A stretch of 64,000 bases of DNA, from the IMG/VR virus record IMGVR_UViG_3300032268_000986, positions 46,259 to 110,258 of that record. One strand, given 5' to 3'. Under the pieces are notes generated by a model. The model searched no databases. It saw only the letters and a program-made list of their open reading frames with translations, and had not been told where the DNA came from. The position numbers were made by a program, and so were the translations under genes. Of the stretch, positions 44,782 through 54,038 are shown one piece after another; the first letter of the stretch is position 1, and the number at the start of each line of letters is the position of its first letter. Source of the stretch: a virus.

Positions 44782-44857
44782 TGGTCTCACTGCCAGGACT
44801 TGAACCTGGATCTACTGCTTAGGAGGCAGTGGTTCTATCCAGTTGAACTACAGCGAG
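44782..44857 (-). tRNA. tRNA-Arg(CCT)
   Basis: cloverleaf by hand; anticodon loop CTCCTAA; T-arm CCAGGTTCAAGTCCTGG; CCA encoded. Confidence 0.7.
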
Positions 44858-45484
44858 TCAGCGCCAAAACGTACACACTTGACCATTGTGCTCGGCACGG
44901 ATATTTGTGACATGGTCGTAGATCTTGTCAAAAATTGTAGAGTATGTTTTGGTTGTAAAATGTGGAGCCACTGATGTAAACACTATACCATGTGGGCTGT
45001 GTTGGGCAAGGGCCAACATGAGATGATTTTGCATGGCCTTGCCACCGGCATAGCCAGCTGCCCAGGTGCTGTAGTCTCTTTGGTGTTCCCATGACATACC
45101 CGAGGTCATGAATACAACACTGCTGCCTGGCTTCAAGTATTGCATTGCACACAGTGAGACGGCATGTGGTATTCCGGCATGTATTCTCACAGTGTCTTGC
45201 CAGGCATGTTCTTGATAATGCTGTGTGCCGTCAAAACATCCAGGTTGGTCAGGCCAGCTGGCGGCAGTGGTATTGTACAGCACCAGATCCAAGGGTATGG
45301 CAGCGGCCACGGACTGAAATTTATCAACCACATCTTGGGTATTGCCAAAATTGGCAGTTATGCTGTGGGGATGATCACAGTGTGATATAGTGTGAACTGT
45401 GTGCCCTTGATTTCTGGCACGGCTGCAAAAATCAGGACCAAATTTACCGGTTGGTCCACCTCCCCCAAAAACGCAAATGTTCAT
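44858..45484 (-). CDS. NAD(P)-binding Rossmann-fold protein (SDR/NmrA-like)
   Basis: MNICVFGGGGPTGKFG dinucleotide-binding motif. Confidence 0.55.
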   Translation of the reverse strand: MNICVFGGGGPTGKFGPDFCSRARNQGHTVHTISHCDHPHSITANFGNTQDVVDKFQSVAAAIPLDLVLYNTTAASWPDQPGCFDGTQHYQEHAWQDTVRIHAGIPHAVSLCAMQYLKPGSSVVFMTSGMSWEHQRDYSTWAAGYAGGKAMQNHLMLALAQHSPHGIVFTSVAPHFTTKTYSTIFDKIYDHVTNIRAEHNGQVCTFWR

Positions 45485-45655
45485 GACTGTTAGCTGGGAA
45501 TAAGTCTGGGAAGGTAAGGAACTGCACGTGGTCCGTAGCGGGATTGCAGTAAGAGACGAGCCTCTTGGGCTGTTTGAGCACCCACACGGTCTTTGAATTC
45601 TTTGCCATCGGGTGTGCGTATAGTGGCTTCAAAAAGTTTCATACCACTATTTATA

Positions 45656-45730
45656 TGGCCGGCCCTGCAGGAATCGAACCCACACCGCTTGGTTCGAAGC
45701 CAAGCATTCTATCCATTGAACTAAGGGCCG
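45656..45730 (-). tRNA. tRNA-Arg(TCG)
   Basis: anticodon loop CTTCGAA in CTTGG/CCAAG stem; CCA encoded. Confidence 0.6.
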
Positions 45731-45747
45731 TGTTTGATAAGTAATTT

Positions 45748-46449
45748 ATGCAAACAATTTTATATATTCTCATTGTAACACACATTACCATTGCATGTGT
45801 TACGCTATTTTTACATCGAAGTCAAGCACACCGAGGAGTTGAGTTTCATCCTGTGGTGAGTCATTTCATGCGATTCTGGCTATGGCTAACGACTGGCATG
45901 GTCACTCGCCAATGGGTTGCCGTACACCGCAAGCATCATAGATTTACCGAACAGGATGGTGATCCGCACAGTCCACATGTGCATGGTTTTTGGCGTGTGC
46001 TGTTCACAGGTGCAGGTCTGTACCACTTGGCCAGCAAGGACTCGGCCATGGTCACACAATACGGCGCAGGAACACCCGATGACTGGGTAGAGCGCAACAT
46101 ATACTCCAAACACAGCAAACTAGGTATCTTGCTCATGTTGCTGATAGACATGGTATTGTTTGGTTGGTGGGGGTTGGTGGTATGGGGCATACAAATGATA
46201 TGGATCCCATTCTGGGCAGCAGGAGTTATCAATGGAATTGGACACTGGACCGGATACCGTAATGGTATTACTAAAGATCATAGTCGTAATATTAGTCCAC
46301 TGGGCATTGTTATTGGTGGCGAAGAACTACACAACAATCACCACTTGGATCCAGCAAATCCTCGTCTCAGTCGTCGCTGGTTTGAATTTGATATAGGCTG
46401 GGCGTACATACGCCTGTTGAGTGTGCTGAGACTGGCACACACGAGATAA
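45748..46449 (+). CDS. membrane fatty-acid (Delta9-type acyl) desaturase
   Basis: His boxes HRKHHRFTEQDGDPHSP and HNNHHLDP matching stearoyl-CoA/DesC-type desaturase boxes. Confidence 0.75.
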   Translation: MQTILYILIVTHITIACVTLFLHRSQAHRGVEFHPVVSHFMRFWLWLTTGMVTRQWVAVHRKHHRFTEQDGDPHSPHVHGFWRVLFTGAGLYHLASKDSAMVTQYGAGTPDDWVERNIYSKHSKLGILLMLLIDMVLFGWWGLVVWGIQMIWIPFWAAGVINGIGHWTGYRNGITKDHSRNISPLGIVIGGEELHNNHHLDPANPRLSRRWFEFDIGWAYIRLLSVLRLAHTR

Positions 46450-46450
46450 C

Positions 46451-46526
46451 TGGTGCTGATAACCAGAATCGAACTGGTGACCTCATCCTTACCAAGGATG
46501 CGCTCTACCGACTGAGCCATATCAGC
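46451..46526 (-). tRNA. tRNA-Thr(GGT)
   Basis: loop TTGGTAA; T-arm ACCAGTTCGATTCTGGT. Confidence 0.7.
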
Positions 46527-46570
46527 ATGAAAGAAAAACCCTTGCCATGACCTCATTGAGCATCACGCAA

Positions 46571-46644
46571 GGGCCATGTCTGGAGCGGGATAGGAGAATC
46601 GAACTCCTAACTAAACCTTGGCAAGGTTTCGTTTGACCATTAAA
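46571..46644 (-). tRNA. tRNA-Gly(GCC)
   Basis: loop TTGCCAA in AAACC/GGTTT stem; acceptor GCGGGAT. Confidence 0.7.
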
Positions 46645-46880
46645 CTAATCCCGCGATAACTTTATAATAAAAAGTGTCCGGCTACTCACACCACATGAGC
46701 CCCGGACTGAGCGGTTACTCTGTCCACTACATTTATTCTTTTGGAATGGCGTTAGTACCACACCCTAGGCAGTTTTCAGGATCTCCGAAAGGGAGACTGT
46801 AAGGTCAGGTCCTAGTGTACCCCCTGGTCTATCGTTACAGGGACGCTATTTCGTTAACGTAGAAATAGTAAGACGGGATA

Positions 46881-47447
46881 TTACACCAAGCCTTGACTGG
46901 TCAACACAGCCTGGGTACTGGCACTCACAGCAATCTCAGTGCGAACATTGAGCTCTAGGATTTCGTCCTGAGTTTTCTGTTTGGCTTTCTTGAGTTGGGC
47001 CACTTCCTTTCGAAAACCATCAAGGTCTTCTTGTGCAAACACCGAAGTGTCCACTGTGGATTCAAAGCCGTACACACGACTGGTTTCAGTGCGAGTACGC
47101 ATCTTTTCCAGCTTGCCAGCAACCACAGCCGCACTCTCACGAACCTTTTGACTCACAAGGTTGGTGTACAGCTGGATCAGTTTGTCCTGGTGCGCAACTT
47201 GCGCCAGCTTGGCGTCAATGCCGGCTGTGTGGTTGGCTGTGCTCACAGCCTGGCGAATTTCGTACAAGGCATTGTACAAGTACTTGCGAGTGTCCAGCTG
47301 ACTTAGAGTCTGCACACGAACACGAGCAATTTCTGCTTCGGCGTCCTGGAATTCATTCAGGCCAACCACTGGGTTAGACTCAAGACTCTTGATGGCATCA
47401 TTGATGGAGTTTTGCAAGGCATTGGCTTTACGCAGGGAAATATTCAT
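46881..47447 (-). CDS. hypothetical coiled-coil protein (188 aa)
   Basis: ORF. Confidence 0.45.
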   Translation of the reverse strand: MNISLRKANALQNSINDAIKSLESNPVVGLNEFQDAEAEIARVRVQTLSQLDTRKYLYNALYEIRQAVSTANHTAGIDAKLAQVAHQDKLIQLYTNLVSQKVRESAAVVAGKLEKMRTRTETSRVYGFESTVDTSVFAQEDLDGFRKEVAQLKKAKQKTQDEILELNVRTEIAVSASTQAVLTSQGLV

Positions 47448-52470: not shown

Positions 52471-52632
52471 TCTTGAGTCAGTTAATCTAGTTAACCATCC
52501 CAACCTTCAAAGGACCCCGACACTCCTGGAATACTATTCAAGCCCGCAAAACCGCGTGACCAGACAGACGCTGTCTGGAGCATTGTGGATTTTGTCAGCA
52601 GTGAATGATTCGTTGTGTTCATCATAAGTCCT

Positions 52633-52661
52633 ATTGTATAGTATTTAGCAATTGTTGTCAA
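52633..52661 (-). promoter_or_regulatory. sigma70-type promoter TTGACA-N17-TACAAT driving unannotated leftward transcript
   Basis: rc TTGACAacaattgctaaatactaTACAAT. Confidence 0.5.
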
Positions 52662-52678
52662 CCACTAAAGTGTTTTAT

Positions 52679-52861
52679 TTATCCATTTGTAGTCATTGTG
52701 TATGTTTCACTCATGTGAACCATGTACGCACGACTGGTGTTTGTTTCGTTATGGCTCTTGATAAAATCTCGAGCCAAGGCCTCACTATCAAAATACACAG
52801 TGCCACCAACAGTCATGTCGGTTTCTCTTTGTTCGTTGACAATAACAACTTTGTATTTCAT
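52679..52861 (-). CDS. hypothetical protein (60 aa)
   Basis: ORF abutting tRNA-fMet-like gene; no SD. Confidence 0.3.
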   Translation of the reverse strand: MKYKVVIVNEQRETDMTVGGTVYFDSEALARDFIKSHNETNTSRAYMVHMSETYTMTTNG

Positions 52862-52868
52862 AGTTAAT

Positions 52869-52944
52869 TGGTTGCGGGACTTGGATTCGAACCAAGGATG
52901 GCAAAGGCTTATGAGACCTCGCTAGTGACCAGACCTTCCCCGCG
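52869..52944 (-). tRNA. initiator-like tRNA-fMet(CAT) with degenerate D-arm
   Basis: 5' CGCGGGG and 3' CCCGCAACCA as in bacterial tRNA-fMet (C1-A72 mismatch); loop CTCATAA; D-stem poorly paired. Confidence 0.6.
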
Positions 52945-52969
52945 CTATTCAGTTACAGTTATTTATACA

Positions 52970-53047
52970 TGGAGTCTCGGGAGGGATTTGAACCCACGAA
53001 TCAACGGATTTGCAATCCGAGCCATTGAGCCACTCTGGTACCGAGAC
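52970..53047 (-). tRNA. tRNA-Cys(GCA)
   Basis: perfect acceptor GTCTCGG/CCGAGAC; loop TTGCAAA. Confidence 0.65.
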
Positions 53048-53803
53048 ATTACCCTATATGTAAACACACTGTCATCACCACCATACTTCCACGTCTTACG
53101 GCAGATGTGTCTGTCCTGTGTGTTTACATATAAGCATGTTGAATTTGAGAGCCTACGCCGCTTTTATCGTAGATTTATTCAGGACTTACCGGCCGCCTAG
53201 CCTGACCTCGAGCACGATGGATATCACTTGGGCTTCGTCCAGCGTAGTCTCCTTTACAGACCTCCGCAGTTGCCCGCGGGTGGGAGTTGAACCCATTTGC
53301 CTTTTACTGCTTTGGTCCTTCGAAGAAACCTAGACAGCGTGACTTCACTTGCTGACACTCTCAAAACTTGGCGGTCCTAGGGGGTAACGATCCCCACTCT
53401 TACGGCGTGACAAGCCGTCGTGCGTCCATGAACACTTTAGGACCAATTTTTATAGTCAAGCACCGAGAATGCCAATTTAGGAGTCCGGTGCTTCCGTTCC
53501 AAAGCCGATGCAGTTATGTCAGGATCCGTTCCCGGCCGGTTGGACCCGAATAGTGTATGCGTCCATACACGATACCTTATCGATGCTTGACTATAAAAAC
53601 AAAAATGCTCTGCATCCCCCGGCGGTAATTGTAGTGCATCATCTCTTGGATTTCTCCGCAATTCTCACACACCTTCCACCCGCTTCCCGACAGGGACCGT
53701 TATCGCATTGCCAGCGGCCTTTCGGTAAGAAGACTACCACCCTTGGCTATCACACCACTTCTCATCTTGCGGGTCACAATATCTGCTGATTAGGCAGAAC
53801 GTT

Positions 53804-53890
53804 TTGGTGGAGACGGATGGATTCGAACCACCGCGCTTTTTAGGGGCCAGATTTACAGTCTGGTGCAATCAACCACTCTGCCACATCTCC
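53804..53890 (-). tRNA. tRNA-Tyr(GTA)
   Basis: loop CTGTAAA; long variable arm. Confidence 0.7.
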
Positions 53891-53963
53891 AAAAAAGGTA
53901 GGATCACGGTTGCAGGACCTAGTGCTCTTGCGAGGAAGTATCCAGGCGATGTGATCCTAAAAA

Positions 53964-54038
53964 TGGTACACGATACGGGAATCGAACCCGTCTTACCAAC
54001 GTGAAAGGCTGGTGTCCTAAACCGATAGACGAATCGTG
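53964..54038 (-). tRNA. tRNA-Glu(TTC)
   Basis: loop CTTTCAC; T-arm ACGGGTTCGATTCCCGT. Confidence 0.65.

Follow-up and report, generated by a model that had tools for sequence, protein, structure and literature searches.

The 64,000-nucleotide (nt) stretch of DNA analyzed here (the window; positions 46,259 to 110,258 of the IMG/VR virus record IMGVR_UViG_3300032268_000986) carries a dense array of transfer RNA (tRNA) genes, which is probably the tRNA island of a large uncultured phage, with odd-looking members that would be working tRNAs kept by selection for a purpose that we infer. Judged by comparison with related sequences, these members are conserved tRNA types common to hundreds of uncultured phages. 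They comprise (i) a tRNA-Leu(UAG) with a short variable arm; (ii) an initiator-like tRNA with a reduced D-arm; (iii) a tRNA-Val(GAC) with U37; and (iv) a tRNA-Asp with a non-standard T-loop. Two conserved structured RNAs, el1 and el2, lie in the same array.

In total, 34 tRNA genes were found in the window, all on the minus strand: 32 within 9.3 kb (44782-54039) and two at 62827-62980 (Table 1). ARAGORN at default settings reported 33 tRNAs and one transfer-messenger RNA (tmRNA), likewise all on the minus strand, with 31 of the tRNAs in 44782-54039 and two at 62827-62980. The Rfam tRNA model returned 31 tRNAs above its gathering score. The 34th gene, tRNA-Ser(TGA), has the loop CTTGAAA and a long variable arm; it was detected at 49747-49831 by the Rfam tRNA-Sec model (48.0 bits, cut-off 47) and recovered at 49743-49831 by ARAGORN with relaxed thresholds. 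All 20 amino acids are covered, plus an initiator-like tRNA and an Ile2-like CAU tRNA, and by standard wobble and decoding rules the set could in principle read all 61 sense codons. The CCA end is encoded in 34 of the 34 genes, spacers within dense runs measure 3-14 nt, and many tRNAs are followed at their 3′ end by a U-rich trailer, e.g. AGTTTT. Thirteen of the 34 tRNAs have T34 in the anticodon, which reads A-ending codons, and the class II Leu tRNAs with anticodons CAA and TAA keep the long variable arm. Searches of the gaps for further tRNAs, e.g. in T-arm-like stretches at about 49250-49320 and 53270-53300, gave noise only (ARAGORN at 70-80% thresholds or with introns allowed); the stretch at 53270-53300 is part of el1. 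The array is not a product of chance, given the high-scoring covariance-model matches and the recurrence of the four odd members, with compensatory changes, elsewhere.

A sequence-only reading of this stretch, based on hand folding, had described a large one-strand tRNA array with atypical members, isoacceptor pairs, four Arg tRNAs, and short spacers. It had singled out a UAG tRNA with a 5-nt variable arm, a tRNA with a pyrimidine at position 37, and a tRNA with initiator-type ends, C1/A72, and a poorly paired D region. ARAGORN and Rfam bear out the array, and the three unusual genes are indeed as described, the pyrimidine being T37 of tRNA-Val(GAC), the only such case among the 34 tRNAs. The same reading was wrong in reporting no tRNA-Asp(GTC), a gene that ARAGORN places at 53369-53444. 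It escaped both hand folding and Rfam, probably because its T-loop is ATCGTTA instead of TTCRANN.

The tRNA-Leu(UAG) of the window measures 77 nt including CCA, and its variable loop, ATTTT, has 5 nt, whereas bacterial class II tRNA-Leu has a stem-loop of 10 or more. Shared with the bacterial class II form are A73, A14, A15, and U48, a 3-bp D-stem, a large D-loop with GG, and, most likely, the leucine codon meaning. A pattern combining the D-loop TTGGTA, the anticodon loop CTTAGAA, and close spacing to the T-arm matched at least 120 IMG/VR contigs. Of these, ARAGORN recognized 117 of the 120 listed matches as tRNAs, nearly all of them as tRNA-Leu(tag) of 74-79 nt; the listed copies all lie inside tRNA arrays, and several are identical to the window copy. 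Over 42 distinct 77-nt sequences, a class I cloverleaf was 99.4% paired (36-49% in shifted-register controls), with changes on both sides in 19 of 20 pairs. U8, A14, A15, U48, and A73, all in columns outside the search pattern, were invariant in these 42 sequences; G18, G19, U20, and A20a were present too, but belong to the pattern. Leucine identity in E. coli depends on A73, the A15-U48 pair, A14, G18G19, and A20a, and the long arm is dispensable for leucyl-tRNA synthetase (LeuRS) (PMC9976931). All of these identity elements are found in the short-arm tRNA-Leu(UAG), which most likely keeps what bacterial LeuRS needs and still decodes leucine.

Among cultured phages, short-arm Leu(UAG) genes annotated as tRNA-Leu occur in T5-like phages (TrudiRoth as well as Providencia, Proteus, and Vibrio phages), in the rV5-like phages 4MG, PVP-SE1, and GAP31, and in Xanthomonas phage X1. 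The copy of the T5-like Escherichia phage TrudiRoth, also 77 nt long, has the same D-arm (TGACGGAATNGGTATACGTGT) and the same variable loop ATTTT as that of the window. Phage 4MG has a 78-nt Leu(TAA) in addition. In 278 viral loci (L130-L306 and L419-L519), which had been fetched for other reasons and not chosen on this tRNA, genes of at most 79 nt accounted for 51 of 139 Leu(UAG) and for 129 of all 355 Leu genes; for the other anticodons the short forms numbered 47 of 65 (CAA), 19 of 118 (TAA), and 11 of 30 (GAG). With about one third of their Leu tRNAs devoid of the long arm, the sampled viral arrays provide a natural test of what LeuRS needs as well as candidate compact tRNAs for engineering. 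A survey of 185,579 bacterial and archaeal species genomes (one each) yielded 106 loci and 95 short-arm Leu(UAG) tRNAs, 93 of which have other tRNAs within 3 kb, and 70 at least five in that range. This near-exclusive clustering points to a tRNA of mobile arrays rather than of core bacterial sets. The long arm is likewise lost in animal mitochondrial tRNA-Leu, where leucine identity is conveyed by A73 and A14 (PMC9976931), and reduced D-arms also occur in animal mitochondrial tRNAs (PMC7609411). In contrast to mitochondrial tRNAs, those of the window otherwise have well-paired, bacterial-type bodies rich in G+C, the T-loops being standard, and the setting is a phage in a bacterium with ordinary synthetases.

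With bacterial initiator tRNA-fMet, the initiator-like tRNA shares the CAU anticodon, the 5′ end CGCGGGG, the 3′ end CCCGCAACCA, and the C1/A72 mismatch. A pattern derived from its D-region and anticodon arm was found in at least 120 IMG/VR contigs, and BLAST gave no match in cultured phages. For 35 distinct sequences of this family, the proposed fold was predicted independently by RNAalifold. In this fold, a one-base linker precedes the D-arm, the D-stem has 2 bp, one of them switching between G-C and A-U, and the D-loop has 7-9 nt. The anticodon helix comprises 7 bp and one bulged base, with covariation in five of the seven pairs; an invariant U:G pair adjoins the loop CTCATAA, and the T-arm is normal. 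Positions 1 and 72 are unpaired in 27 of the 35 sequences and form A-U or U-A, never G-C, in the others. Overall, the family is 95.8% paired, compared with 31-45% in shifted controls, and compensatory changes occur in 13 of 20 predicted pairs.

This architecture differs from that of tRNA-fMet in several respects. The anticodon stem ends in G-C (or A-U), G-C, and U:G at the loop, not in three consecutive G-C pairs; there is one linker base, not two; and a two-pair D-stem and a bulged seven-pair anticodon helix stand in place of the cloverleaf with its 4-bp D-stem. As the acceptor-end mark is present but the three G-C pairs and a normal D-arm are lacking, we treat the gene as initiator-like, with a putative role in initiation, rather than file it as a standard tRNA-fMet. 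In the related arrays L079 and L120 a canonical-looking initiator takes its place, and an initiator-type tRNA of T5-like phages combines a 1:72 mismatch and the same AGTCTCATAAGCT anticodon arm with a normal D-arm.

From two CAT tRNAs, at 50310 and 62906, the sequence-only reading had deduced that one must be an Ile2 tRNA. The CAT tRNAs actually number three (50310, 52869, and 62906), and the deduction itself holds. By its sequence the gene at 62906-62980 is of the Ile2 (lysidine) type, since its best matches in E. coli are annotated tRNA-Ile (79-80% identity over 91% of the length, in 417 genomes). ATA makes up 22% of the Ile codons in the window. The gene at 50310-50384, with a paired 1:72, is assigned to elongator Met by exclusion only.

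A Val-type body with the loop YTGACTC was detected in 62 IMG/VR contigs. Among 44 distinct extracted sequences (flanks included; a few are not tRNAs), stems vary widely, and pairing is complete in the anticodon and T stems, where 9 of 10 pairs show compensatory changes; the extraction held out-of-register copies, and only the counts for these two stems are reliable. Most other phage Val(GAC) genes examined have A37, so that U37 marks a sub-lineage of Val(GAC). The tRNA-Asp of the window has G73, G10, and C38, and its T-loop places A at position 54 and T at position 58. This A54/T58 variant was present in 36 fetched loci, in which it was 99.8% paired with compensatory changes in 13 of 21 pairs. 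Ralstonia phage RSP15 (NC_030948.1, 93341-93416; L312, 8001-8076) has a tRNA-Asp with an ATCGTTA-type T-loop that is 84% identical to that of the window and is unannotated in the published record, though neighboring tRNAs are annotated. Given that Rfam misses both the Asp variant and the initiator-like tRNA, phage tRNA counts and claims that a phage lacks a certain tRNA can err.

As for expression, the array region contains 24 promoter-like sites on both strands, compared with 14.7 expected; two match the sigma-70-type consensus in full (Table 1). Host polymerase would transcribe the array from such internal sigma-70-type promoters, and host RNase P together with 3′-end enzymes would cut the transcripts into tRNAs. 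The self-sufficient decoding set would then keep phage translation independent of the host tRNA pool, and the structural departures of the odd tRNAs might render them less susceptible to host enzymes that cleave or inactivate tRNAs. One point in favor of nuclease evasion is that the initiator-like tRNA has G39, where a host-type initiator has C, a position that we take to adjoin the reported VapC cleavage site. Evasion may be the purpose, by analogy with tRNA-rich phages, whose tRNAs carry changes at nuclease sites and have been proposed to escape anticodon nucleases in this way (van den Berg et al. 2023, PMC10264068). In experiments described in a later report, phage tRNAs overcame retron and other defenses (Azam et al. 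2024, PMC11555353). U37 and C38 of tRNA-Val and G39 of the initiator-like tRNA resemble the changes of phage tRNAs proposed to resist nucleases in lying in the area of the anticodon loop; the other two departures, which affect the variable arm of tRNA-Leu and T-loop positions 54 and 58 of tRNA-Asp, lie outside it. Should it be true that the changes counter tRNA-targeting host immunity, they would name the sites to test.

Four adjacent small genes on the same strand (38126-40174) possibly provide a related context. They encode a RelA/SpoT-type HD hydrolase (HD_4), an AAA_33 P-loop kinase with weak similarity to Pnkp and PSTK, a calcineurin-like phosphoesterase, and a dual-specificity phosphatase-like protein. 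Having an HD hydrolase, a Pnkp/PSTK-like kinase, and two phosphoesterases together at 38.1-40.2 kb would be consistent with tRNA protection, although as a possible module for RNA-end repair or for alarmone or tRNA detoxification the group is suggestive only.

Several points weigh against an island of working, selected phage tRNAs. Among about 60 window proteins checked, no capsid, portal, terminase, or other structural gene was found. We know of no nuclease shown to require the variable arm of tRNA-Leu, residue 37 of tRNA-Val, residues 54 and 58 of tRNA-Asp, or the D-arm of a bacterial initiator. The families were gathered by sequence patterns, which fixes some columns and biases the samples, and the sequences entering the covariation counts are related, so that the counts are not independent events. 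Finally, CTA sites were aligned to Leu in 56% of cases, compared with 64-76% for the other Leu codons.

These points have to be set against what other explanations would require. That the atypical members are decaying pseudogenes or errors of hand folding, with only about 30 canonical tRNAs at work, appears very improbable. The initiator-like D-stem does have only two Watson-Crick pairs, and the Rfam general model reports neither the initiator-like tRNA nor tRNA-Asp at E ≤ 1, nor tRNA-Asp at E ≤ 10. Rejection by covariance models had been named in the sequence-only reading as a possible refutation; the general model readily accepts Leu(TAG), with 61.2 bits, and Val(GAC), with 58.3 bits, and fails to recognize the other two. 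The comparative conservation and covariation described above, with 96-99% of positions paired and many compensatory pairs in families that span dozens to at least 120 contigs, show this failure to be a limit of the model and not gene decay. Moreover, without the Asp gene one amino acid would be missing from the set, and Leu(UAG) is the sole reader in the array of the CTN box, i.e. of 60% of the Leu codons in the window. Each atypical member belongs to a conserved, covarying family, and the fear of mis-registered folds or pseudogenes voiced in the sequence-only reading was unfounded. No more credible is a sense-codon reassignment, in which the UAG tRNA would carry a residue that is not leucine and CUA or all CUN codons would be recoded in phage genes. 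Mitochondrial reassignments do involve a UAG anticodon on a class I body, and yeast mitochondrial tRNA(UAG) carries Thr, with an 8-nt anticodon loop, or Ala, with G3:U70 (PMC7609411); the slightly lower conservation of CTA sites would fit as well. In the window, however, the anticodon loop CTTAGAA has 7 nt, the 3:70 pair is C-G, and the tRNA has a Leu-type D-arm; T5-like coliphages, whose annotation uses the standard code, have this tRNA too. In a comparison of all homologous ORFs (open reading frames) in the fetched loci, CTA, CTC, CTG, and CTT of the window aligned to TTA or TTG of relatives, the codons of other, long-armed Leu tRNAs, at 24%, 26%, 29%, and 22%, with control codons at 2.6-6.7%; CTA replacements in relatives were mostly Ile, Val, and Met. 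In the carbamoyltransferase gene, CTC, CTG, and CTT fall in Leu columns of homologues from other phages and viral contigs, and the five CTA sites are too few and too variable to decide alone. Unusual decoding by the short-arm tRNA was rejected on the strength of A14, A15, U48, and A73 and of the leucine-like interchange of CTN and TTR codons.

A more serious competitor, though we rate it as rather doubtful, is compensation for codon usage: the tRNAs would serve codons common in the phage and rare in the host, and the oddities would be neutral drift that is tolerated. The phage has 47% G+C and many A/T-ending codons (TTT is 72% of Phe and GAA 72% of Glu; AAA, ATT, and CAA are favored, and ATA has the share of Ile given above), T34 is frequent among the anticodons, and the nearest cultured-phage matches infect Ralstonia. 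Ralstonia is G+C-rich. The set is nonetheless complete and not confined to rare codons, and the oddities are kept over hundreds of contigs while the surrounding stems change, which argues for selection and not drift. An analysis of tRNA-rich mycobacteriophages, too, found no link to codon frequency (PMC10264068). It is also conceivable, but improbable, that the window is not viral at all and that the array is a tRNA array unit carried by a bacterial chromosome, a plasmid, or some other mobile element. Such units exist in bacterial genomes (PMC5966550), and 95 class I Leu(UAG) genes were retrieved from genome assemblies. The lack of structural phage genes noted above would also agree with this, as would the presence of several radical SAM/SPASM proteins, sugar-modifying enzymes, a TctA-family transporter, and a MoxR/VWA pair; the window proteins include a carbamoyltransferase and 2OG-Fe(II) oxygenases as well. 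Local BLAST against fetched IMG/VR loci, on the other hand, showed patchy 70-85% identity across 38-64 kb with viral contigs of up to about 250 kb, and the syntenic, tRNA-sharing relatives are IMG/VR viral contigs, many of 250-525 kb. Several window proteins match PHROG families, the nearest counterparts of the carbamoyltransferase are those of a marine virus contig (47%) and of the Ralstonia jumbo phage RsoM2USA (45%), and the Asp tRNA matches that of phage RSP15. Viral origin, resting on the syntenic IMG/VR relatives and the PHROG matches, thus appears well supported but not proven.

Returning to the presumed phage island, two stretches between its tRNA genes were conserved as structured RNAs. 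el1 is 90-96% identical to its counterparts in L144, L046, L216, and L087 and contains covarying hairpins, a helix capped by a GNRA-type loop, and a T-arm-like hairpin (GGGTTCAACTCCC). For el2, 40 pairs were predicted, 17 of them with compensatory changes. Its core motif was found in at least 119 contigs of IMG/VR, many of them 260-525 kb long; in 82 of 123 matches a tRNA lies upstream within 260 nt, always on the same strand, and the motif mostly starts 60-64 nt past the 3′ end of that tRNA. Neither element matched an Rfam family (scan of 53040-53810 at E ≤ 10) or a cultured phage, and inspection by eye only did not reveal the conserved P4 sequences of RNase P in either. Since both lie on the strand of the tRNAs and begin directly after a tRNA 3′ end, el1 and el2 are probably released by tRNA processing. 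The tRNA cluster of phage T4 encodes stable non-tRNA RNAs as well, species 1 and 2 (rnaC/rnaD), to which el1 and el2 may be comparable. Both are candidate new RNA families. Tentatively, and with more doubt than confidence, we suggest that the Leu tRNA lacking the long arm, the Val with U37, the Asp with a swapped T-loop, and the reduced-D-arm initiator-like tRNA form a shared kit of reshaped tRNAs, selected to escape host enzymes that cleave or disable tRNAs, and that the co-transcribed el1 and el2 contribute separately to this contest or to tRNA processing. In that case both the initiator-like tRNA and el2 would represent new classes of RNA that the Rfam models used have missed and that each occur in at least about 120 viral contigs.

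Phage tRNA arrays are well known, and the array as such is ordinary. Tens of one-strand tRNAs amid small ORFs are likewise found in large lytic phages (T5-like Demerecviridae, rV5-like Vequintavirinae, cluster C1 mycobacteriophages, and jumbo phages). The window differs from these clusters in that its set is complete, a permuted tmRNA lies nearby, and the reduced D-arm initiator-like tRNA as well as el1 and el2 are without cultured-phage match. At the nucleotide level no relative turned up among 50,697 cultured phage records, in which megablast with the 11-kb array gave only four matches, all of tRNA size. Leu tRNAs are said to carry a long arm everywhere but in animal mitochondria (PMC9976931), and a review of non-canonical tRNAs makes no mention of phages (PMC7609411). 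We found no description of short-arm phage tRNA-Leu, of phage initiators with reduced D-arm, or of structured RNAs in phage arrays in the literature searched, which did not extend to older T5 papers. The conserved non-canonical designs, above all the reduced D-arm initiator-like tRNA, are variants for which the searchable literature yielded no description.

Table 1. Features of the tRNA array and its surroundings (window coordinates; bits refer to the Rfam tRNA model unless another model is named).
Feature	Position	Strand	Evidence or remark
tRNA-Arg(CCT)	44782-44857	-	ARAGORN; Rfam 63.8 bits
tRNA-Arg(TCG)	45656-45730	-	ARAGORN, Rfam
tRNA-Thr(GGT)	46451-46526	-	ARAGORN; Rfam 74 bits
tRNA-Gly(GCC)	46581-46654	-	ARAGORN, Rfam
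tRNA-Leu(CAA), class II, 82 nt	48266-48347	-	ARAGORN, Rfam
tRNA-Pro(GGG)	48966-49042	-	ARAGORN, Rfam
tRNA-Ala(GGC)	49323-49396	-	ARAGORN, Rfam
tRNA-Leu(TAA), class II, 84 nt	49401-49484	-	ARAGORN, Rfam
tRNA-Val(GAC), loop TTGACTC (U37, C38)	49489-49564	-	ARAGORN; Rfam 58.3 bits
tRNA-Leu(TAG), 5-nt variable loop (class I shape), Leu-type D-arm, A73	49571-49647	-	ARAGORN; Rfam 61.2 bits
tRNA-Phe(GAA)	49662-49737	-	ARAGORN, Rfam
tRNA-Ser(TGA), class II	49743-49831	-	Rfam tRNA-Sec model; relaxed ARAGORN
tRNA-Pro(TGG)	50029-50105	-	ARAGORN, Rfam
tRNA-Val(TAC)	50112-50186	-	ARAGORN, Rfam
tRNA-Gly(TCC)	50192-50265	-	ARAGORN, Rfam
Sigma-70-type consensus promoter (TTGACA, 17 nt, TATAAT)	50274-50302	-	12/12; upstream of Gly(TCC)
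tRNA-Met(CAT), elongator type by exclusion	50310-50384	-	ARAGORN; Rfam 66.9 bits
tRNA-His(GTG), C73; G at 50464 = encoded G-1	50390-50463	-	ARAGORN, Rfam
tRNA-Lys(TTT)	50584-50657	-	ARAGORN, Rfam
tRNA-Lys(CTT)	50661-50735	-	ARAGORN, Rfam
tRNA-Arg(ACG)	50841-50917	-	ARAGORN, Rfam
tRNA-Thr(TGT)	50975-51049	-	ARAGORN, Rfam
tRNA-Ser(GCT), class II	51057-51146	-	ARAGORN, Rfam
tRNA-Asn(GTT)	51155-51230	-	ARAGORN, Rfam
Sigma-70-type consensus promoter	51239-51267	-	12/12; upstream of Asn(GTT)
tRNA-Ile(GAT)	51276-51350	-	ARAGORN, Rfam
tRNA-Gln(TTG)	51359-51432	-	ARAGORN, Rfam
tRNA-Ala(TGC)	51441-51515	-	ARAGORN, Rfam
tRNA-Trp(CCA)	51524-51597	-	ARAGORN, Rfam
Sigma-70-type promoter-like site	52633-52661	-	11/12; inside array
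Initiator-like tRNA(CAT)	52869-52944	-	ARAGORN only
tRNA-Cys(GCA)	52970-53047	-	ARAGORN, Rfam
el1, conserved structured RNA	53134-53368 (~235 nt)	-	starts directly 3′ of tRNA-Asp CCA
tRNA-Asp(GTC), T-loop ATCGTTA	53369-53444	-	ARAGORN only
el2, conserved structured RNA	53596-53806 (~200 nt)	-	starts directly 3′ of tRNA-Tyr CCA
tRNA-Tyr(GTA), class II	53805-53890	-	ARAGORN, Rfam
tRNA-Glu(TTC)	53964-54039	-	ARAGORN, Rfam
PP-loop-motif protein, 358 aa	54723-55799	-	overlaps stop of TctA-family transporter gene
Permuted (two-piece) tmRNA, tag ANDSQFALAA	58790-59268	-	ARAGORN; Rfam tmRNA_permuted RF04321, 135.9 bits, cut-off 47
tRNA-Arg(TCT)	62827-62901	-	ARAGORN, Rfam
tRNA(CAT), Ile2 (lysidine) type	62906-62980	-	ARAGORN; Rfam 72.6 bits

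The tmRNA passes the permuted and alpha tmRNA models of Rfam and scores 72 bits with the beta model (cut-off 84). Permuted tmRNAs are also present in the relatives L003 (2381-2728) and L006 (3662-4197), and the tag of one relative is ANDEKFLMAA.

Of the PP-loop ATPase that the sequence-only reading had noted at 54723, the motif stands: the protein has SGGMDS at residues 87-92, and S86, G87, G88, D90, and S91 are invariant in nine homologues. No Pfam, PHROG, or NCBIfam family was matched at the thresholds used. The predicted fold is of low confidence (predicted local distance difference test score, pLDDT, of 62); in the PDB it comes closest to NAD synthetase, APS reductase, and LarE, with E values that all exceed 0.008. 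TilS (1ni5) ranks 15th among these weak fold matches, with a probability of 0.35. An identity as TilS is not supported, as there is no TilS family match and the fold ranks NAD synthetase, APS reductase, and LarE ahead. By its motif the protein is a member of the PP-loop superfamily, with a putative activity only. Its peptides had no match in an IMG/VR search, and a protein search yielded only the nine homologues, all on short metagenome contigs whose ends fall within the array. The exact protein was found on short metagenome contigs with the same gene order, i.e. transporter, tmRNA, and then tRNA-Glu, Tyr, and Asp.

The gaps between the tRNA genes have conserved counterparts in viral contigs, in some cases at 95% identity. 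Those at 50464-50583, 49113-49273, and 52368-52605 (minus strand) show 72-85% identity; that at 52368-52605 contains a terminator-like hairpin and overlaps a 56-aa ORF. A 55-aa basic ORF (MTCRGYDSRAVKIGKP...) at 49841-50008 (minus strand), between tRNA-Ser(TGA) and tRNA-Pro(TGG), is 70-76% conserved in many viral tRNA arrays. Just upstream of tRNA-Cys, a long perfect hairpin is found at 53054-53131 (ATATGTAAACACAC, about 48 nt, GTGTGTTTACATAT), and the matches of the Rfam scan of 53040-53810 were only chance microRNA-like ones to this hairpin.

Further from the array, at least five radical SAM proteins are encoded on the plus strand at 4036-13662, two of them with a SPASM domain ahead of the radical SAM domain, and the carbamoyltransferase gene follows at 14793-16268. 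This arrangement suggests a cluster for peptide or sugar modification. On the minus strand, at 32723-36417, a MoxR-type AAA ATPase is encoded near a DUF2201 metallopeptidase-like protein with a VWA domain, and a gene for an SPFH/Band 7 protein is located at 31514-32482.

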